Of a stretch of 64,000 bases of DNA, positions 1 through 54,634 are shown piece by piece. The translations under genes and the position numbers were made by a program. How positions within the stretch are numbered: the first letter of the stretch is position 1; each line of letters begins with the position of its first letter. This DNA is from a virus (Duplodnaviria; Heunggongvirae; Uroviricota; Caudoviricetes), in IMG/VR virus record IMGVR_UViG_2529292913_000008. One strand, given 5' to 3'. The notes beneath the pieces are model-generated. The model was not told the DNA's origin. It saw nothing but the letters and a program-made list of their open reading frames with translations, and ran no database searches.

Positions 1-210
1 ATGGCTTTCATTCCACCAACCATCGACGACGTTAGACATTGCTCTAACGCTTTATCTGTAGACCCCGCCGAAACCGACGCTGCCCGCGCCATTGCTGAAC
101 ACTACTCAAAGATATCCAATCAGGAGTACCGCATCACCCAAGACGACCTGGATGATCTCACTGACACAATCGAATATCTCATGGCCACTAACCAGCCAGA
201 CTCACAATAA
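1..210 (+). CDS. coi: C1-inactivator (Coi)-like small protein
   Basis: 69-aa ORF directly upstream of c1 on the same strand, matching the P1 immC layout (coi then c1). It starts at the window edge, so the true 5' end is unverified. Confidence 0.5.
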   Translation: MAFIPPTIDDVRHCSNALSVDPAETDAARAIAEHYSKISNQEYRITQDDLDDLTDTIEYLMATNQPDSQ

Positions 211-226
211 ATGCACTAATAAATCT
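210..226 (+). promoter_or_regulatory. C1 operator-like site (14/17 match to ATTGCTCTAATAAATTT)
   Basis: aatgcactaataaatct lies between the coi stop and the c1 start; the match is to the asymmetric P1 C1 operator consensus as I recall it. Confidence 0.4.
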
Positions 227-320
227 ATTATTTTCGTTGGATCCTTCTATAATGGTGGCCAACAACTCCCAGTGTAATCCGCTGTGAGTTGTTGGCCATG
301 TCAATTCTGGAGGAGGATCA

Positions 321-1173
321 ATGATAAATTATGTCTACGGCGAACAACTGTACCAGGAGTTCGTCAGCTTCAGGGATCTCTTTCTAAAAAAAAGCTGTTG
401 CACGCGCCCAACACGTTGATGCCGCCAGCGACGGTCGTCCTGTACGCCCGGTTGTCGTTCTGCCGTTCAAAGAAACTGACAGCATTCAGGCTGAAATTGA
501 TAAATGGACTTTAATGGCGCGGGAACTGGAACAGTACCCAGACCTCAATATCCCAAAGACTATTTTATATCCAGTGCCTAACATCCTTCGCGGTGTGCGT
601 AAGGTTACAACTTATCAGACAGAAGCTGTGAACAGCGTCAACATGACCGCTGGCCGCATTATTCATCTGATTGATAAGGACATTCGCATCCAGAAAAGCG
701 CGGGGATCAATGAGCACAGTGCGAAATACATAGAGAACCTGGAAGCAACAAAAGAGCTAATGAAGCAGTACCCGGAGGATGAAAAATTCCGTATGCGTGT
801 ACACGGCTTTAGCGAAACAATGCTGCGCGTCCATTACATTTCCAGTAGCCCTAACTACAATGATGGTAAATCAGTTAGTTACCATGTGCCGCTGTGTGGT
901 GTGTTTATCTGCGATGAAACTCTCCGTGATGGAATCATCATCAACGGTGAATTCGAGAAAGCAAAATTTAGCCTTTATGACTCTATAGAACCGATCATCT
1001 GCGACCGCTGGCCGCAGGCAAAAATATATCGCCTGGCAGATATTGAAAATGTAAAAAAACAAATTGCCATCACTCGCGAAGAGAAAAAGGTCAAATCAGC
1101 CGCATCAGTTACGCGCAGCCGTAAAACTAAGAAGGGGCAGCCAGTAAACGACAACCCCGAAAGCGCGCAATAG
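321..1173 (+). pseudogene. c1: C1 repressor gene with an apparent +1 frameshift in an A8 run (386-393)
   Basis: ATG at 321 reads MINYVYGEQLYQEFVSFRDLFLKK and then hits a stop. Removing one A from the run at 386-393 joins it to the 219-aa ORF 514..1173, giving 283 aa, the length I recall for P1 C1. Confidence 0.6.
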
Positions 1174-1197
1174 TTTCTATCCGGCATGGTCAATGAG

Positions 1198-2682
1198 TTA
1201 TTCATTAAGCCATGCCAGAGCTTCATCAACCTGCGCTTCGTCTTCGACGCTAAGCACTTCATCCTGGGGAACATAATCCGCCAGCATAGCGAAACAATAT
1301 GTATCCCAATGGTCTGGTGAGTGCAGGTTGAGTTTTTTCTTCATATCCTCCTTACTCATCACCTTCCATTGACCTGCGGAGTTAATCCCTACAGGGATTT
1401 TCGACGCTTCCTCAATAGTTTCATTACCCTTATCCAGTCTCATACGACCTGATTTTACGGCCTCTGCGGCTTGAACGTTGGCATAAGCACGCTTATCAAA
1501 GTACAGGCTCTTATCTTCACGGCTATGCATCTTTTTACCCCAGCGTATACGCTGTACGGTAATACCATAATACTCGTACATCAGATCCGCCGTTGCTTTA
1601 CCCAGGCCATCGCCGTCTATCGCTATGGTGATATTTGGGAATCGCTCAGGATTACATTCTGCGAAAATTTTGGCGGCAAGCTGCGTTTCTGTAACGTCTG
1701 TGTATTCCAGCATTCGATAGTTGATTACACGGCGTTTATTTCGCTGGCCGGACACCATCATGATATTGATAACTGACTTATCCCGTCCCGTACCACCAGC
1801 AACGTCCACACATGCAAGCCAGCCCCATCCTTTGGCAATCTTAACTTTCCGCCGCGTTGCACGTTCAACCTCATCACGTCCAAGAAGGAAGCCGTCCTGT
1901 GATTTAGGGAATAGGCCACGCACCTTAATCATGTACATAGGGTTATCACGCCCGCCGTACTCCGCCAGCTTCATTTTGATAAATTCTGGCGTTACCAGCG
2001 GTGATTCCTCACTGTTAAGCGTGATCGCCGTATAAACGCCATCTGGGTTACCAGGACGCTTGGCCAGTTTATGGTGAGTATCGTAGAAATAGCCGCTTGG
2101 GCGTGTAGGCTGTGACAGTAATAAGATGCGGTTATCCTGTCCGGTAAGAGCACCGGTGATGATACCGAAAGCTCTATCACTGACACCGGAGGCTTCATCG
2201 ATAATATACAGAAGATGATCTGCGTGTTCACCGGCGAGAGCTTCTTCACTTCCCAGACGAAAGCCCTTCGGTACTACAGTCCATACACCTTTACCAGTAA
2301 CCTCATAGAAAGCGGTTTCTGTCAGAACAAAATAATCAGCAAGCCATGGAAAACGGCTGGTGGCAGTAGCCCAGTTTATCTTGATGTACTTGAATATACC
2401 GGTCATTACCTGCTGAATTTTGTTCGCAACGATAATGGCGCGGGCACCGGGATACATGATTATGAACAACATGATCATGATAGAAGTCATGTCTGATTTC
2501 CCGGTACCGTGACCAGACGAAACAGATGTCTTGCTACCCTGTTCCTGCACAGACTCAATAATCAGATCCTGCTGCCAGGTAGGTGTTTTGCCGAACAAAA
2601 CATCAGCGGCAGCAATCCAGTCATAACGATATAGCGCCACCAGCTCGCGCCAACGTGGATCCGTTACGCAACTTCTGGCCAT
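1198..2682 (-). CDS. pacB: Terminase large subunit (PacB-like)
   Basis: 494 aa with Walker A GHGTGKS and a C-terminal nuclease-like region; overlaps the pacA stop by 1 nt (ATGA); the size matches P1 PacB. Confidence 0.85.
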
Positions 2683-3875
2683 TAATCATCATCCCCGTAT
2701 AGCTTGCGGGTAACTTCTTCGTCTTCCTCCTCGTCTTCGTCCAGGTCTTGTTCCAGCCATGGGTCGTTTGATACACCTTCAGTATCAACATCTCCATAAC
2801 CGCCTGTATCAACGATATCGGCGATTTCTTCCCTACGCTGCTCAATCCACAATGCGGCATCGGCGCGGCGGTTGGCGGCCCGTTCTCGCGCAACTTTGTC
2901 CAGATCTTCAAGAGAAGGGCCACCGACGGCTGTTTGCCTTTCCTCATCATCGGTATTGGTCTTAGGAGCACGCAGATCGGCTTTGATTTGCTCCAGCATC
3001 AGGGGCGGCACTTTCCCGCCATGCGCCTCGATGAATTCAGCTGCTTCCAGCACTGACCAGTTATTTTCACGCTTTCGTTCGTATGCCAGCTTAACAATGC
3101 CAGCTTGCCCCATAGATAAAGCGTGCTTTTCCGCCTCCCGGCTTTCTTTTCGATAGTTATTCCGGATGCTGTAAATGGTGTTGATCAGACTGCTTATCTG
3201 CGCGGAACAGCTGTTTAGCATGCTCGCGATACGGTATTCAGGCGGAGTTCCTTCATCATCGTCTTTTTGCTGATCGCGAATTTCCTGCACCAGGCGAATA
3301 CACGTATCCCTGGCGTTCTCCAGCATAAGGAGATGAGAGAGAGACTTTTCCAGAAGAGTGGTTTCCAGAACATCAGCCCCGGACCGACGCAACATAGCGC
3401 GCGCGGCCTTCCGCGCTTCAACGTTATCTATCAGGTAATCGCCAGCTTCGAATTCAAAGCGTTCACCATCATCATCCAGGGTGTCGCGTTCCAGGCGATC
3501 ACGTAAGGTCCGGCGGGCGCGGGTGATCACGTCATGATCATCTGAACGATCATTTATGCGCTTATTTTGGCGCTTCGCATTCTCGACTGCGGCACTGACA
3601 ACGGCATTAACTCTCTGTTTTTCCGCTATTTCAGCCGCAATATGATCACCTGCATGTTGATCATTAGAGTGATCAATGATCATGCTTTTTAGTGGCTTCC
3701 TGACTGGCTTATTTGGCTTGCGGCTGTCCGCAGTCCTGGTGTCTTCTTTGAAGGCACGGAGATAACGACGTGCGGTATTAGGGTTAAGATTAAACTCGGC
3801 GGCATACTGTGCGATGGTGTAACCACCATCTCGCGCCAGGCGAGCAAAATTCTTTTTGTGATCGTCCCAGGTCAC
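2682..3875 (-). CDS. pacA: Terminase small subunit (PacA-like)
   Basis: 397 aa, basic/HTH-like N-terminus and very acidic C-terminus; immediately upstream of pacB; contains the hexamer clusters typical of the P1 pac site. Confidence 0.75.
3520..3685. other. pac: pac site: two clusters of TGATCA hexamers (Dam GATC sites) inside pacA
   Basis: TGATCA at 3524, 3535 (plus cGATCA at 3548) and at 3643, 3658, 3670, 3677. A 3+4 arrangement about 100 bp apart is as described for P1 pac. Confidence 0.6.
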
Positions 3876-3960
3876 TTATGCTTCCTTTCGTAAAAACTCT
3901 TTTTGACGCGAGGGTAACGAAAGTCACATGTCAAAAGGCCCGGAACGGGCAAGCAATCAA

Positions 3961-4413
3961 TCAGATACGTGCGGATGTGGCATTACCGTAATGACGGTGC
4001 TGACGGGCCACCTTATTGAAAAGTTGACGCGCCATTACCCAAGGCTGGTGCTCCCGGCGTTCCTTTTCGTCCTGCGTCATATAGAGTTCGTTCTGGAGTT
4101 TTTCATCAAACCGGCGCGGAGCGCGGCTACGGCGAAAGAATTCAGGATTCAGAGAGTGGATCTGAAATCTACGTGGGCGTGTACTGTCATCAATCAAAAC
4201 AGACGAATACTTAGACACAGCGATAGCCTTTAAGCGCAGATAAACATCGCGCTTATCGACATCCAGATGCGGGTATTCCTTTTCAAGAATTGCTGCGAGT
4301 TCTTTCGCTGATAGAAGAGATTTAGTGCGGATCATGTAATCCGCAATCTCGTACGATGTTATTCGTGAGTGATTTATTTCCATGAAGTGGCGTCCCTGCC
4401 AGTTAAGTAACAT
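3961..4413 (-). CDS. lpa: Late promoter activator (Lpa)-like protein
   Basis: 150-aa ORF directly upstream of pacA in the P1 gene order, with a C1-operator-like site upstream; assignment is by synteny only. Confidence 0.45.
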   Translation of the reverse strand: MLLNWQGRHFMEINHSRITSYEIADYMIRTKSLLSAKELAAILEKEYPHLDVDKRDVYLRLKAIAVSKYSSVLIDDSTRPRRFQIHSLNPEFFRRSRAPRRFDEKLQNELYMTQDEKERREHQPWVMARQLFNKVARQHRHYGNATSARI

Positions 4414-4483
4414 CCTGTCACCTACTGATTAGCCCATGTCAACTAATCAACGTGGAATATAATACCCTCGATTAAATAAATAG

Positions 4484-4500
4484 CAATACATTAGAGCAAT
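4484..4500 (-). promoter_or_regulatory. C1 operator-like site upstream of lpa (13/17)
   Basis: caatacattagagcaat on the plus strand is the reverse complement of the operator consensus; it lies between the lpa start and the upstream gene. Confidence 0.35.
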
Positions 4501-4501
4501 T

Positions 4502-5545
4502 TTATCTAACGCTCGACGAGTGACTTGTGATAGCGCCGACTCCAAGCGCGTAATCAAAGAACAATCGTTGATGCATCGCCAGCCTACCGTGTGTTTTCTC
4601 CCAATTATCGCGGTCACGCTCAATATCACGCTGGCATGACTGGCACAGAGGAATAGCATAAATGTCATGCGCGCATAATCGACTATGACGAACGATATAA
4701 GGCGTAATGTGAGCGCCAGCTCCCGCAGCTCCACAGCCACAGCATGGACGGGAAGCAACAAAGTCCATGTACTCAGGTAATTTTAGCGATTGAAGTTTTG
4801 GTATTTTGAAATGCGCCATACCTGGGTCGGAGTCAACATCCACAGGACATACTTTTGCACGCATCGGCGCGGCGCGTTCTTCCATCATCTGAACATATGC
4901 TATAGCGCGATCGTCATACGGGCGAATATCCGCCTCTTTCAGAGGTCCGCTATCCTGCGGAGTAGCCTTCATCTTATTTATTGATATGCGGCAGACTTCT
5001 TCCGGCATCAGGTGCATCATGTTGCGCATGAAAGCCCACCAGCACAGTTCCTGAATACTTAAATCATGGCCATCTGAAAGCCCCATTTCCTGACGGGCGA
5101 CATCCAGTATCCAGTTAACGCGATTATTATGCAGCGTTTCTTTCAGCTCATTAAAACCACGCATCCGGTAATGGTTATCGTGATGCCAGCACAACAACAC
5201 CGCGCTATTGTCTCGTTCAGCGTGGACAATATGGTTGTCACACCAACTACGATCTGCGGCCTGGCATTGCCCCTCTTTCCTGCGCAACCACGCCACCAGC
5301 GAGTCAATTCCACCAATACGGCGAAACAGTTCATCGCTGTTAAAAAACGGCTGCAACGCCTCATTTGTTGCCATAGTTTGCTCGGAAACAACGAGGCCGT
5401 CGTCCATGTGCTCGATTAACTCACGCGGCACCGGCTCCATAATAAATTTACGGCCAGCCTCCACCAGCTTTCTGACCTCCTGGTCCACTTTGAACGTGGC
5501 GAGGCCAAGCTCTTTCTGTACAAATGGAGTAATTACGGCTTTCAC
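4502..5545 (-). CDS. Hypothetical protein with Cys-rich C-terminal motifs (pdcB-position)
   Basis: 347-aa ORF downstream of doc; contains CCGCG and CxxC-type cysteine clusters; function unknown. Confidence 0.5.
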
Positions 5546-5572
5546 ATCACACCTTTAATCACTGATTGGGCT

Positions 5573-5752
5573 TTATCTGCTGCCCGGCATTCTCTGTTTA
5601 AGCACAACCATTTCCTGACGGCATAACACAGCAATAGCGGTCCTGGCACCAATTTGCTTACCAACCAGGTATTGCTTTACCTCGCGGCGACTCACGCCAT
5701 CAAGAAGCATCTTTAACGCTTCACGGGACAATTTGTTGTATTTACGTGCCAT
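5573..5752 (-). CDS. Small basic protein (pdcA-position)
   Basis: 59-aa ORF starting at the internal ATG (MARKYNK...) with a GGAG RBS, directly after the doc stop; the longer ORF start at 5773 would overlap doc. Confidence 0.4.
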   Translation of the reverse strand: MARKYNKLSREALKMLLDGVSRREVKQYLVGKQIGARTAIAVLCRQEMVVLKQRMPGSR

Positions 5753-5756
5753 TAAT

Positions 5757-6137
5757 CTACTCCGCGGAACCATACAATCTACGTAACGTGTCGGCGACAG
5801 AAGATACAGATATCTCTCCGGTCGCAGCCCCTACGGTAAGGTCTGCCAGTTCAGGTGAATCAAATACCTGCACCCCGTTACGGCGTAGAAATAACAGCGC
5901 ACTGTTTAGCGCGGTACGCTTATTGGCATCATTGAATATATGCCCTCTCGCTGTAGCCACCAGGTAGGTGGCGGAGACTTCGAAAAGGTCGGTGATCTCT
6001 TCGTAGGCAACTCTGGCCTGAACTCTCCCGATAATGGCCTCTGCCCTACCCGGATCTGACATTCCCGGCAAGCCGCCGTAGCGGTTTATATTCGCATCAT
6101 GAAGCGCAATAAGTTCTTCCGGTGATATATGCCTCAT
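5757..6137 (-). CDS. doc: Doc toxin (Fic/Doc family)
   Basis: 126 aa, essentially the P1 Doc sequence as I recall it ([17 protein letters not shown]...[11 protein letters not shown]...); start overlaps the phd stop by 1 nt. Confidence 0.9.
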
Positions 6138-6358
6138 TATCGGTTAACCAGTTCCTTGTTGGTGGAGTCCAGGGTGTCAAACAGGGATGCAAATTCAGCA
6201 TCCAGCGCCGCTTTTTTGTAGGCTTCAAAAGTAGCCTTGCTGACAATTACTGCTGGCTCACGGCCTCTGCGGGTGATTTCAACCTCTTCCCCGGCTTCAA
6301 CATTGTTGAGCACTTCAGAAAGGTTGCCGCGCGCGGTACGGAAGTTAATGGATTGCAT
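6137..6358 (-). CDS. phd: Phd antitoxin
   Basis: 73 aa from the ATG at 6358 ([17 protein letters not shown]...), GAGG RBS upstream; classic phd-doc operon with 1-nt overlap. Confidence 0.85.
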
Positions 6359-7528: not shown

Positions 7529-8853
7529 GAGATCCCCTCATAATTTCCCCAAAGCGTAACCATGTGTGAATAAATTTTGAGCTAGTAGGGTTGCAGCCAC
7601 GAGTAAGTCTTCCCTTGTTATTGTGTAGCCAGAATGCCGCAAAACTTCCATGCCTAAGCGAACTGTTGAGAGTACGTTTCGATTTCTGACTGTGTTAGCC
7701 TGGAAGTGCTTGTCCCAACCTTGTTTCTGAGCATGAACGCCCGCAAGCCAACATGTTAGTTGAAGCATCAGGGCGATTAGCAGCATGATATCAAAACGCT
7801 CTGAGCTGCTCGTTCGGCTATGGCGTAGGCCTAGTCCGTAGGCAGGACTTTTCAAGTCTCGGAAGGTTTCTTCAATCTGCATTCGCTTCGAATAGATATT
7901 AACAAGTTGTTTGGGTGTTCGAATTTCAACAGGTAAGTTAGTTGCTAGAACCCATGGCTCCTTTGCCGACGCTGAGTAGATTTTAGGTGACGGGTGGTGA
8001 CAATGAGTCCGTGTCGAGCGCTGATTTTTTCGGCCTTTAGAGCGAGATTTATACAATAGAATTTGGCATGAGATTGGATTGCTTTTAGTCAGCCTCTTAT
8101 AGCCTAAAGTCTTTGAGTGACTAGATGACATATCATGTAAGTTGCTGATAGGTTTCCAGTTTTCCGCTCCTAGGTCTGCATATTGTACTTTTCCTCTTAC
8201 TCGACTTAACCAGTACCAACCCAGCTTCTCAACGGATTTATACCATGGCACTTTAAAGCCAGCATCACTGACAATGAGCGGTGTGGTGTTACTCGGTAGA
8301 ATGCTCGCAAGGTCGGCTAGAAATTGGTCATGAGCTTTCTTTGAACATTGCTCTGAAAGCGGGAACGCTTTCTCATAAAGAGTAACAGAACGACCGTGTA
8401 GTGCGACTGAAGCTCGCAATACCATAAGTCGTTTTTGCTCACGAATATCAGACCAGTCAACAAGTACAATGGGCATCGTATTGCCCGAACAGATAAAGCT
8501 AGCATGCCAACGGTATACAGCGAGTCGCTCTTTGTGGAGGTGACGATTACCTAACAATCGGTCGATTCGTTTGATGTTATGTTTTGTTCTCGCTTTGGTT
8601 GGCAGGTTACGGCCAAGTTCGGTAAGAGTGAGAGTTTTACAGTCAAGTAATGCGTGGCAAGCCAACGTTAAGCTGTTGAGTCGTTTTAAGTGTAATTCGG
8701 GGCAGAATTGGTAAAGAGAGTCGTGTAAAATATCGAGTTCGCACATCTTGTTGTCTGATTATTGATTTTTCGCGAAACCATTTGATCATATGACAAGATG
8801 TGTATCCACCTTAACTTAATGATTTTTACCAAAATCATTAGGGGATTCATCAG
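7525..8853 (-). mobile_element. IS10 (IS4 family), 1329 bp, with 9-bp target-site duplication AGCCCAGCA
   Basis: Ends CTGAGAGATCCCCTCATAATTTCCCC (7525) and CTGATGAATCCCCTAATGATTTTGG (reverse complement, ending 8853); direct repeats agcccagca at 7516-7524 and 8854-8862. Confidence 0.9.
7538..8746 (-). CDS. IS10 transposase
   Basis: 402 aa, full length, recognised as the IS10/Tn10 transposase sequence. Confidence 0.95.
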   Translation of the reverse strand: MCELDILHDSLYQFCPELHLKRLNSLTLACHALLDCKTLTLTELGRNLPTKARTKHNIKRIDRLLGNRHLHKERLAVYRWHASFICSGNTMPIVLVDWSDIREQKRLMVLRASVALHGRSVTLYEKAFPLSEQCSKKAHDQFLADLASILPSNTTPLIVSDAGFKVPWYKSVEKLGWYWLSRVRGKVQYADLGAENWKPISNLHDMSSSHSKTLGYKRLTKSNPISCQILLYKSRSKGRKNQRSTRTHCHHPSPKIYSASAKEPWVLATNLPVEIRTPKQLVNIYSKRMQIEETFRDLKSPAYGLGLRHSRTSSSERFDIMLLIALMLQLTCWLAGVHAQKQGWDKHFQANTVRNRNVLSTVRLGMEVLRHSGYTITREDLLVAATLLAQNLFTHGYALGKL

Positions 8854-8917
8854 AGCCCAGCATGAAGTAGTTCTGAACCGGATTAGAGAAATGCAAAACG
8901 ATAACAGGGGATTTTGA

Positions 8918-9280
8918 ATGGCTAAAATCGAGTACCATCGCGATCGCGGTAATTACCTGGAAATATACGATCATGAATCTCTTAACGATATCAACGATGC
9001 GTTATATGAATACTGTGAAAAAATGAGCATCACAGATGCACCTGACGCATTTGTCGAGCTACCGGTATATCTCCGCGACATCTATGCAATACGGACGCCG
9101 CCCGTATCGGTAATTCACATTGGCTATGTCCGCCTGTCCATCGAAGAAGATGAAGATCGTTATATCGTACGCCACTATACATTGGACAGAAAAGAGCTTC
9201 CCAATGAATGGAACATGAGTAATTTCTACAACGGTGAATATGGCTTAAAACCCGCTATGAATGGCGCGGGCATTGCGTAA
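8918..9280 (+). CDS. Hypothetical protein
   Basis: 120-aa ORF starting at TGAATG overlap with the reconstructed end of the IS10-interrupted gene; no recognisable motif. Confidence 0.45.
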   Translation: MAKIEYHRDRGNYLEIYDHESLNDINDALYEYCEKMSITDAPDAFVELPVYLRDIYAIRTPPVSVIHIGYVRLSIEEDEDRYIVRHYTLDRKELPNEWNMSNFYNGEYGLKPAMNGAGIA

Positions 9281-9291
9281 TAGCCTAACAA

Positions 9292-9543
9292 CTATTCTGT
9301 TTTCTGATATGCCGGATCGTTCCCTTTTGGCAACTGGAGGCTTAACTGCCGGTAGTGCCGTAGACGTTCCATGAAATAGGTGCGCAGATTCTCTGGTTGC
9401 TCGCGGGCTACCTGTTCAGCTATGACAGGTATGTTCAATCGCTCTTTGTAGGCAACCCCCCTGGCAGCCAGGTCAACGTTAACTTTATTCCTTTCTTCCT
9501 GGCTTTTGGCTGCTATGTTCCATTCGTTCATATTAAATCCCAT
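9292..9543 (-). CDS. hot: DNA polymerase III theta-subunit homolog (Hot)
   Basis: 83 aa; the [35 protein letters not shown] stretch is clearly homologous to E. coli HolE (theta). Confidence 0.75.
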
Positions 9544-9999
9544 CCAGAATAATTGAATAACGGCTATTATTTAGTCGCCGCAATATCTTCAAAGTTTTTT
9601 TCTCACCCCATTGCTTTTTGCGCACAGCTTATCTGGCTTGCGGTGCGCCGAAATGTAAATTCGCCTTCAGAGTTATCCACAAAGTTATGCACTTGCAACG
9701 AGGCCATTTTCCTCATACTGTGTTTGCACACACAGGAAATGGATATTTTATTAATTGAATTTTATTAAATAATAATGATAAGGAGAAAATTTGAGATGTA
9801 ATCATGACATTAATAGATAGGGCCTGCATTACAGGCCCCAACTACATCAAGGAATTCACAGTTCCCTGATTTTTATACCGAAAACATGTGCCGTAAGTTC
9901 ACGTTAACGACTTTCTTTCACCGAATCCAACTATATAGAGGTTGGGTTTCTACGTCAACGTGAGAGCACACAGCTTTACATTTGACGAGGATTACCCTG

Positions 10000-10137
10000 A
10001 TGATTGTATTTTTTCAGTTTCTAAGTGCATTTTTAAATGCGCCTGTTCTTAGCCAAGTGCTGGCGATTGTCTTCATCGTGGTTCTGATATGGTTTTTCAA
10101 GTCAGTGATAAACAGAGGCGTGCGCTGGCTTATTTAA
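10000..10137 (+). CDS. Candidate small hydrophobic membrane peptide (45 aa)
   Basis: ATG 9 nt after a GAGG RBS; MIVFFQFLSAFLNAPVLSQVLAIVFIVVLIWFFKSVINRGVRWLI; below the ORF-track length cutoff; speculative. Confidence 0.25.
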   Translation: MIVFFQFLSAFLNAPVLSQVLAIVFIVVLIWFFKSVINRGVRWLI

Positions 10138-10675
10138 TGTCGCGCTGAGATATTAATTCCCTTGCTGTTTAACCATTTTTTGTGTGTGCTGGTGAGCGTG
10201 TGAAGGCTCAATTTGTTGCCCACCAGTATTTACTATTTCTAAGCTCCACAGTGTCACTTCCGCACAAACAACTTAGCGCGGAATCAGTATTCGGCCCAAG
10301 ATGTAAAAAGCCAACCTGCGTTATGGTTCGCATTTCCAAATAGTGTTCTGAACGCCCGTGCCGGGCGCGAGATGTGGATTAGCGTTCGCGCTATGCTGAT
10401 ATACGGCTTTAGACTTTCCATATTGCTGACAGGCTTTATCTGCGGTTTTTTGCAGGCTATCCAGCCCATACCAGCCATCAGACTGGATGCTTACCTTTTC
10501 ACCGTCATTGTATTGCACCATCGCGAACCCAAACATAGCTATCATCGCACCGACAATACCGCTTTTCCAAAAAGCTCTAATTAGGTCATTCGTTGCCTAA
10601 TGTCCGAACTGCTAAAGCATCAAAGTTGCTGTAGAATCACCGCCAATTACTTAAGCCTGAAATAAGTGGAAGAAA

Positions 10676-50589: not shown

Positions 50590-50745
50590 TTACCTTTCAG
50601 ATTCGTAGGCTGTGAAGACAGTGACCTCCGTCTGGCCGGTTCGGATTCGTACCTCGCAGAGGTCTTTCCTCGTTACCAGTGCCGTCACAATGACGGTTAA
50701 ACAGATGACGATCAGAGCGATTAATATCGCTTTATGCTGCTTCAT
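50590..50745 (-). CDS. Hok/Gef-family membrane toxin
   Basis: 51 aa, MKQHKAILIALIVICLTVIVTALVTRKDLCEVRIRTGQTEVTVFTAYESER, near-identical in pattern to E. coli HokC/Gef; below the ORF-track cutoff. Confidence 0.75.
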   Translation of the reverse strand: MKQHKAILIALIVICLTVIVTALVTRKDLCEVRIRTGQTEVTVFTAYESER

Positions 50746-50926
50746 AGCCTGCTTCTCCTTGACCTTTTGGTCGGTAAGAGGCTAATCTACGTATGCTAAG
50801 CATAGATATGGCCTCAGATTAATGTTAAGCGTCTTGCAGGACGCGTAATGTTATCTGGGGCTTTCTTCTATCTGCTTTTCGGGTAATGCCTGAAGCAGAT
50901 AGCCTCAAGCACCCGCAACGATTGTA

Positions 50927-54361: not shown

Positions 54362-54438
54362 CTGCTAAACAGGTGGCAGGACGTGACGGGGTTAGCAGAC
54401 TGGCACTTACGAAACCAGCAGGCCGAAGCCTCCCCATC
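54362..54438 (-). ncRNA. c4: Predicted c4 antisense RNA (77 nt)
   Basis: On the minus strand, GGTGGGGCGTGATGGGG... to ...CCCCGTCACGTCCTGCCACC has roughly complementary ends and is exactly 77 nt, the size reported for P1 c4; boundaries were inferred by eye. Confidence 0.4.
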
Positions 54439-54634
54439 ACGCCCCACCATAATTCGGGCGTAACGTGGTTTACGGACACAAAAATACCGCAATATCGGAA
54501 ATCTGCGGTTGTCCGCGTAAGTATTCAGGCTGCTAAACCCGGTCGCAGAATTTGCTACGACGGCGAAACTATAAGCCTGAACGATTAAAAGGTCAATATG
54601 ATGCAAAAAGATAGCATTCGCGACTTAAAAATAC

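Follow-up and report, generated by a model that had tools for sequence, protein, structure and literature searches.

The 64,000-nucleotide (nt) stretch of viral DNA analysed here (IMG/VR virus record IMGVR_UViG_2529292913_000008, hereafter the window) contains a small open reading frame (ORF) of 45 codons at 10000..10137 on the plus strand, set in a P1-like phage-plasmid backbone beside hot (9292..9543, minus strand). The ORF travels with hot and not with the type I restriction-modification (hsd) genes located to its right, and its hsd neighbourhood in the window is incidental. Of the explanations weighed below, the most likely is that it encodes a new, narrowly distributed small membrane peptide under antisense control, with a promoter captured from nrdAB together with its DnaA boxes. 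Taken jointly with such an antisense-controlled arrangement, we tentatively regard the ORF as a genuine, essentially unannotated gene of the P1 backbone that encodes a single-pass membrane peptide, at a likelihood a little short of even.

A 45-codon reading frame with a hydrophobic product

The ORF runs from an ATG at 10000 to a TAA at 10135-10137 and is preceded by a GAGG Shine-Dalgarno sequence (9987..9990, plus strand) located 9 nt before the ATG; the ORF list gives the frame as 9982..10137, counted from an in-frame TTG upstream of the ATG. The encoded peptide, MIVFFQFLSAFLNAPVLSQVLAIVFIVVLIWFFKSVINRGVRWLI, has a grand average of hydropathy of 1.72, with stretches of 15 residues reaching 3.08. 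AlphaFold2 predicts helices at residues 2-12 and 16-44 on either side of an N-A-P break (mean predicted local distance difference test score 85), such that a short N-terminal helix is followed by one helix of transmembrane length and a basic C-terminus. The size (less than ~60 residues), the hydrophobicity, and the predicted membrane helix are those of type I toxins. T-rich DNA readily gives hydrophobic frames, and 56 ORFs of at least 20 codons overlap coordinates 8500-11500; an ORF of such size alone is not beyond chance, and it is the comparison between lineages that lifts this one above it. The hydrophobic 45-residue ORF and its GAGG ribosome binding site, first proposed in a reading of the sequence alone (the sequence-only reading), are thus borne out, and both are conserved across lineages.

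Conservation and coding evidence

Five diverged lineages were compared: the window type, P1, P7/SJ46, and two further types, L006 and L012, the last of which lies not on a P1 backbone but in an island flanked by type VI secretion system (T6SS; VgrG) and H-NS genes. The ORF is intact in 68 of the 72 loci collected, the others being one homopolymer frameshift and three loci without an ORF call, and the window, P1, P7, and L006 share the same ATG and TAA positions with no insertions or deletions (indels) in 138 nt, whereas the flanks are rich in indels. It is the sole stop-free frame among the six across the four diverged lineages tested. The L006 peptide retains 78% identity, and hydrophobicity is kept in all lineages.

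The pattern of substitution is that of a coding sequence in several respects. T occupies 54-61% of second codon positions compared with 24-33% of first positions in every lineage, and the Nei-Gojobori (NG86) ratio of nonsynonymous to synonymous substitution rates (dN/dS) is 0.29-0.47 in all diverged pairs. Identity to the window is 75-86% within the ORF and 36-57% in the neutral-looking AT-rich spacer and 3' flank, and the Shine-Dalgarno sequence is kept at constant spacing, reading AAGG(A) or GAGG in the other lineages. When the observed substitutions were shuffled between sites that share a base, 8-18% of trials left the ORF open; it was both open and changed in hydropathy by no more than the observed amount in 3.5%, 6.3%, and 0.2% of trials for three lineage pairs. 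Selection appears to act on hydrophobic character and not on residue identity, and from these comparisons we consider the ORF to be probably translated, at roughly two chances in three.

Linkage to hot and not to hsd

The sequence-only reading had the peptide travelling with the hsd module, and an accessory toxin or regulator of this restriction-modification system, moving with it, would account for the position of the ORF 540 nt upstream of hsdM (start at 10676) on the same strand of the window. However, the hsd block begins at ~10585, where similarity to hsd-bearing and otherwise unrelated replicons starts, and in window-type plasmids without hsd the shared sequence ends at ~10579 and is followed by other genes; a convergent gene of 74 codons (10321..10545, minus strand) also intervenes between the small ORF and hsd. 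Among plasmid records the hsd junction is present in 792, many of them conjugative, compared with 229 for the ORF region, mostly non-mobilizable and P1-like, and the two are adjacent in ~18 among the matches listed. Most of the 792 hsd-junction plasmids lack the ORF and most of the 229 ORF-region plasmids lack hsd at this place, so that the plasmid records do not show the co-occurrence or co-transfer with hsdMSR expected of an hsd accessory gene.

The ORF instead adjoins hot in P1, P7, SJ46, and other P1-like lineages that have no hsd there, with IS903 separating the ORF from the theta homologue in P7, and hsd is likewise absent from the locus in L006 and L012. In each of four genomic contexts (P1, P7, L006, and the L012 island) the small ORF lies beside the theta homologue. 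A role as an hsd accessory is therefore barely credible. The suggestion of a small membrane toxin or regulator survives as plausible, backed by the conservation and by a toxin-antitoxin-like layout, whereas the proposed association with hsd falls.

The L012 island (positions 1-6300 of a contig from logan:SRR16987663, also present in GCA_012294745.1) carries the cassette of hot and the small ORF outside the P1 backbone, between a cluster of T6SS genes (VgrG, a VRR-NUC effector, and a TsiV immunity protein) and an H-NS-family gene.

A plus-strand promoter copied from nrdAB

Coordinates 9661-9725 are homologous to the Escherichia coli ypaB-nrdA intergenic region, and a 47-bp block matches this region in 5425 of 5426 E. 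coli genomes. It includes two DnaA boxes (9673..9693, plus strand), TTATCCACA at 9673-9681 and TTATGCACT at 9685-9693, which are recorded in a note to the P1 record. These abut a sigma-70 promoter (9693..9721, plus strand) with a -35 TTGCAA at 9693-9698, a 17-nt spacer, and a -10 TACTGT at 9716-9721, and a TAnnGT -10 is kept in all lineages. The two boxes abutting TTGCAA, the 17-nt spacer, the TAnnnT hexamer, and the transcribing orientation are together those of an nrdAB-type DnaA-regulated promoter.

In E. coli HS (L017) TTGCAA (728-733), TATCTT (751-756), and the nrdA ATG (870) are on the same strand; because nrdA is located downstream in this way, the copied promoter faces the small ORF and not hot. 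The nrdAB leader is ~110 nt long, which the spacing in E. coli HS fits, and transcription in the cassette would start near 9728 to give a leader of ~270 nt. The E. coli nrdAB promoter, which is regulated by DnaA, Fis, and IciA, has exactly the same DnaA boxes, -35, and 17-nt spacing, but the likeness ends at the -10, where the cassette has TACTGT or TATTGT and nrdAB has TATCTT. The transcribed regions are unrelated, with the small ORF in place of ribonucleotide reductase. DnaA either activates or represses nrdAB depending on its nucleotide state (PMC8203912).

In P7-type elements the match to the host is longer, with ~115 nt (P7, L002 ~2395-2510 against E. coli HS L017 643-756) of near-identical nrdA upstream sequence that extends well past the DnaA boxes; this suggests that the sequence was captured from the host chromosome, or recombined with it, relatively recently. 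Two other interpretations of the region were set aside. Directly upstream of the ORF the only candidate plus-strand promoter is a weak TTTACA-18-GATGAT that overlaps the ATG, and the nrdAB-like promoter was preferred. A replication origin, as DnaA boxes next to an AT-rich stretch could indicate, was rejected because the block reproduces the nrdAB promoter precisely and is oriented as a promoter.

The predicted leader and 3' end

The predicted 5' leader (9728..9999, plus strand), placed from the promoter position and the conservation profile, is variable and AT-rich at first (9726-9774) and conserved thereafter (9775-9965). At the start of the conserved part is a start-stop mini-ORF (9780..9801, plus strand), in which AAGGAG (9780-9785) is followed after 10 nt by ATG-TAA (9796-9801). 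It is conserved in all lineages, with GTG-TAA at the same place in L006, and might be a ribosome standby or sequestering site. An upstream ORF of 21 codons (9804..9869, plus strand) overlaps the predicted antisense RNA. Both the window and P1 have this upstream ORF, whereas in L006 it has no start codon and in L012 it is fused in frame to the small ORF to give a product of 106 residues (P0007).

A hairpin, UUAAUGUC...GAUAUUAA, spans the stop codon of the small ORF (10134..10156, plus strand) and has a stronger version in P1. Further downstream is a terminator-like element (10182..10243, plus strand) in which CTGGTG (10189-10194) pairs with CACCAG (10221-10226) ahead of a T-rich tail, TATTTACTATTTCT. 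The stem is changed in a compensatory manner in L006 (CTGGCGGGTA/TACCCGCCAG), and the element would presumably form the 3' end of the mRNA.

An opposing promoter and a predicted antisense RNA

A strong sigma-70 promoter is present on the minus strand at 9930..9958, with -35 TTGACG at 9958-9953, a 17-nt spacer, and -10 TATAGT at 9935-9930. It corresponds to the predicted PupfN of P1, scores 10 of 12 consensus matches in the promoter scan, and is located 42-70 nt before the ATG. Neither hexamer varies among the five lineages, and the block that holds them is 83-95% identical to the window. The -10 lies in the loop of a palindrome at 9923-9949 (plus strand; GAATCCAAC-TATATAG-AGGTTGGGTTT) that is conserved in all lineages and would form a 10-bp hairpin on the plus-strand mRNA.

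The predicted product is an antisense RNA of ~110 nt (9812..9923, minus strand; both ends estimated) that is complementary to the leader and contains three stem-loops (SL), SL1 at 9910-9878, SL2 at 9870-9846, and SL3 at 9845-9813, the last with a GC-rich core at 9820-9838. SL3 is followed by UAUCUAUU (UUAUCUUUU in L006), a weak terminator-like tail, so part of the minus-strand transcription may continue to hot. Folding of 9812-9923 gives a minimum free energy of -37.5 kcal/mol (z = -4.1) for the minus strand compared with -24.5 kcal/mol (z = -2.9) for the plus strand. Across the lineages 94.7% of cells in the alignment of the fold are paired, three pairs have a compensatory double change, and ~45 of 244 cells (hand count from the per-pair table) are G-U pairs, which on the plus strand become A-C mismatches. 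The stronger minus-strand fold, the compensatory pairs, and the G-U pairs that fail on the plus strand argue that the structure is selected on the minus strand.

A narrowly distributed family

Scans of the peptide against Pfam and NCBIfam gave nothing above noise at E <= 1, and neither PHROGs (best E values 0.056-0.11, to families of unknown function) nor PADLOC (best E value 0.11) provided a match; Rfam has no match in 9540-10680 at the gathering threshold or at E <= 10. A search of 5.8 billion proteins returned four clusters and an exhaustive profile search of 1.84 billion representatives returned five proteins, all of which are the same P1-family peptide or broken copies of it. By these exhaustive protein searches the family is confined to P1-like elements and a single island with T6SS and H-NS genes on its flanks. 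A metagenome scan with the peptide alignment recovered solely the known window-type and P1/P7-type variants, and a tblastn search of plasmids with the L012 variant gave no match. A first DNA pattern scanned against genome contigs had no matches; a second had eight in unrelated phyla, about the number estimated by hand for chance (18 specified bases, 596 Gb), and these were discarded. Papers reporting P1 RNA-seq make no mention of the region.

A possible antisense-controlled membrane peptide

With slightly less than even confidence, we read the cassette as a type I toxin-antitoxin-like arrangement in which a small membrane peptide, possibly a toxin, is controlled by an antisense RNA. Two promoters would face each other beside hot. 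On the plus strand the nrdAB promoter copy would direct an mRNA made up of the ~270-nt leader, the ORF, and the terminator-like stem, and on the minus strand the stronger, conserved sigma-70 promoter would direct a structured RNA of ~110 nt that is perfectly complementary to the middle of the leader, with part of this transcript perhaps reading into hot. If abundant, the antisense RNA would pair over ~110 nt with the leader, in which the start-stop element and the upstream ORF are located; the pairing may block the standby site or the upstream ORF and with it translation, or may create an RNase III substrate and lead to cleavage, and the converging polymerases may damp the weak plus-strand promoter by transcriptional interference. 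The peptide would then be made just when the DnaA-controlled promoter is boosted by a change in replication status, or when the antisense RNA drops, and would insert into the inner membrane. That both promoters fire, that the RNAs end where proposed, that the ORF is translated under antisense control, and that the peptide has any toxicity we infer from the sequence features described above.

This layout resembles that of type I systems with a leader-targeting RNA (tisB/istR-1, zorO/orzO, dinQ/agrB, and hok/sok) in the peptide of fewer than 60 residues with one hydrophobic helix and a basic tail, in the long structured 5' leader, in the location on a plasmid-prophage, and in the strong promoter on the opposite strand, whose predicted structured RNA is complementary to a part of the leader far ahead of the Shine-Dalgarno sequence. 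Standby-site or mok-type control is known from type I systems, and the cassette is laid out in a similar manner. The stress- or replication-linked promoter has a parallel in tisB and dinQ, which LexA controls, but here the predicted elements are DnaA boxes from nrdAB and not LexA sites. The cassette also differs in that its toxin and RNA candidates have no sequence similarity to those of the known systems, and its promoters are convergent, with ~195 nt of overlap, and not divergent.

The neighbouring genes, namely humD, hot, phd/doc, and the LexA-regulated lxr, hint at replication and damage stress as a common theme. A more ambitious proposal, speculative and distinctly improbable in our estimation, is that the cassette is a replication-status sensor of P1 and its relatives and would represent a new type I toxin family with a trigger under DnaA control: the captured nrdAB/DnaA promoter would drive a membrane-active peptide held in check by an antisense RNA whose own promoter also feeds hot, and through this face-to-face switch the level of DnaA-ATP would govern how the prophage-plasmid behaves (killing, growth arrest, or replisome modification).

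Few phages have been studied as well as P1, and P1-like phage-plasmids disseminate resistance genes among E. coli and Salmonella; nonetheless the P1 reference genome has this conserved cassette annotated on the wrong strand, and most records leave it blank. Expression of the peptide would add a small membrane protein to P1 and possibly, alongside phd/doc and hok/sok, a second addiction or stress module under RNA control; it would also provide an example of a phage copying a DnaA-regulated promoter of its host and a handle on hot expression in lysogens.

Alternative explanations

The P1 reference record (NC_005856) annotates upfM, upfN, and upfO, with predicted promoters, on the opposite strand of the same DNA, and if these are the true genes then the plus-strand ORF is an antisense shadow. 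In the window, L006, and L012, however, their counterparts are interrupted by in-frame stops or have no start codon, and the upfN frame of the window, read from the sequence, ends after four codons; because of these interruptions the upfM, upfN, and upfO calls are probably wrong, and the shadow explanation is highly improbable. The annotated PupfN is the minus-strand promoter of the cassette described here. Whereas the minus-strand frames are not conserved, the plus-strand ORF is, and its P1 equivalent (NC_005856 85995-86129, complementary strand) is unannotated. Elsewhere annotation is sporadic: most of the plasmid records inspected do not list the ORF among their genes, and WP_162883679.1 is a Prokaryotic Genome Annotation Pipeline call on a frameshifted copy in one record. 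Several observations also weigh against a translated peptide under antisense control. The window and P1 differ by 18 amino-acid changes where the permutation predicts 19 at random, conservation is higher in the non-coding block upstream than in the ORF itself, and in L012 a 20-nt deletion swaps the last 12 residues of the window peptide for 9 unrelated ones, with the surroundings of the stop codon remaining conserved despite the frameshift. Gene callers rarely call the ORF (the four clusters among 5.8 billion proteins), short ORFs are frequent in the region, and the statistics are thin because just five lineages exist, all enterobacterial. Apart from the thin statistics, these points would suit an untranslated ORF within a hot regulatory region conserved at the nucleic-acid level, either as DNA sites or as a plus-strand transcript acting against hot by antisense pairing or interference, with the open frame and the hydrophobicity being by-products of T-rich sequence and shared ancestry. 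We consider this rather unlikely, as T is concentrated at the second codon position in every lineage, a single frame is open in all of them, dN/dS is below 0.5 in all pairs, the joint permutation P values reach 0.002, the ORF has no indels in four lineages where the flanks are riddled with them, and the Shine-Dalgarno sequence is conserved at constant spacing.

A second set of points concerns function and control more than translation. SL3 has a poor U-tract, so the minus-strand RNA may simply be the leader of hot, and the antisense RNA leaves the Shine-Dalgarno sequence and the ATG uncovered. None of the known type I families (Hok/Sok, Ldr/Rdl, Ibs/Sib, TisB/IstR, ShoB/OhsC, Zor/Orz, and DinQ/AgrB) gave a sequence or covariance-model match, and a literature search found no paper describing the element. 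In a further alternative, which shares the coding evidence with the preferred reading, the ORF would encode a real small membrane protein that is not part of a toxin-antitoxin system and has a benign or regulatory role, such as membrane protein modulation, lysis timing, or exclusion, with the minus-strand RNA a structured leader or attenuator of a lysogenic hot mRNA and the promoter interference incidental. In agreement with this, hot is reportedly expressed in lysogens as well as late, going by the title of Chikova & Schaaper 2007 as cited in PMC7556043, and no conserved sigma-70 promoter other than the minus-strand one is present upstream of hot. Natural broken copies of the ORF occur (P0003-P0006), which count against coding and show the ORF to be dispensable, and the P1 region is non-essential for lytic growth: upfN, upfO, and hot were scored as such, and upfM was not among the genes tested (PMC10695390). 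The explanation deserves weight but is on balance unlikely, since the ~110-nt overlap is conserved far beyond the needs of a mere leader and the layout, with a strong antisense promoter set against a weak regulated one, a long leader, and a small hydrophobic cationic peptide, fits known type I systems.

Genomic context and other features

To the left of the small ORF the gene order is lpa, pdcB, pdcA, doc, phd, humD, an lxr-like gene, and hot, an arrangement common to an identical plasmid and to P1 itself. hot encodes an 83-residue phage homologue of DNA polymerase III theta (PF06440) and is annotated as DNA polymerase III theta. The locus is part of 'highly variable region 8' of P1-like phage-plasmids (PMC9603915). 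To the right, the region upstream of hsdM is less gene-poor than the sequence-only reading had held. The 74-codon ORF at 10321..10545, which had been dismissed as unconvincing together with 9553..9768 and 10372..10584, matches phrog_7757 over its full length (E = 3e-54), and some RefSeq plasmids have hypothetical proteins annotated on minus-strand ORFs that overlap it; doubt about the other two ORFs holds, as neither has family support in Pfam, NCBIfam, or PHROGs profile scans.

An IS10 insertion is present at 7529-8853, with the transposase at 7538-8746 (minus strand) and RNA-OUT at 8739-8808. By comparison with plasmid NZ_CP122822.1 it splits the 3' part of the lxr-like gene, which is 194 codons long, and the flanks match at 99.7-100% on each side.

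Elsewhere in the window there is a sok antitoxin RNA at 50740-50914 (minus strand; Rfam RF01794, 114.9 bits). This is a genuine sok, so that a classical type I system, hok/sok, is already present on the element besides phd/doc. The P1 immI region is present at 54369-54574 (minus strand), where Rfam identifies the C4 antisense RNA together with the a1/b1 target sites, and three tRNA genes are located at 30287-30359 and 32568-32718 (minus strand), as in P1.

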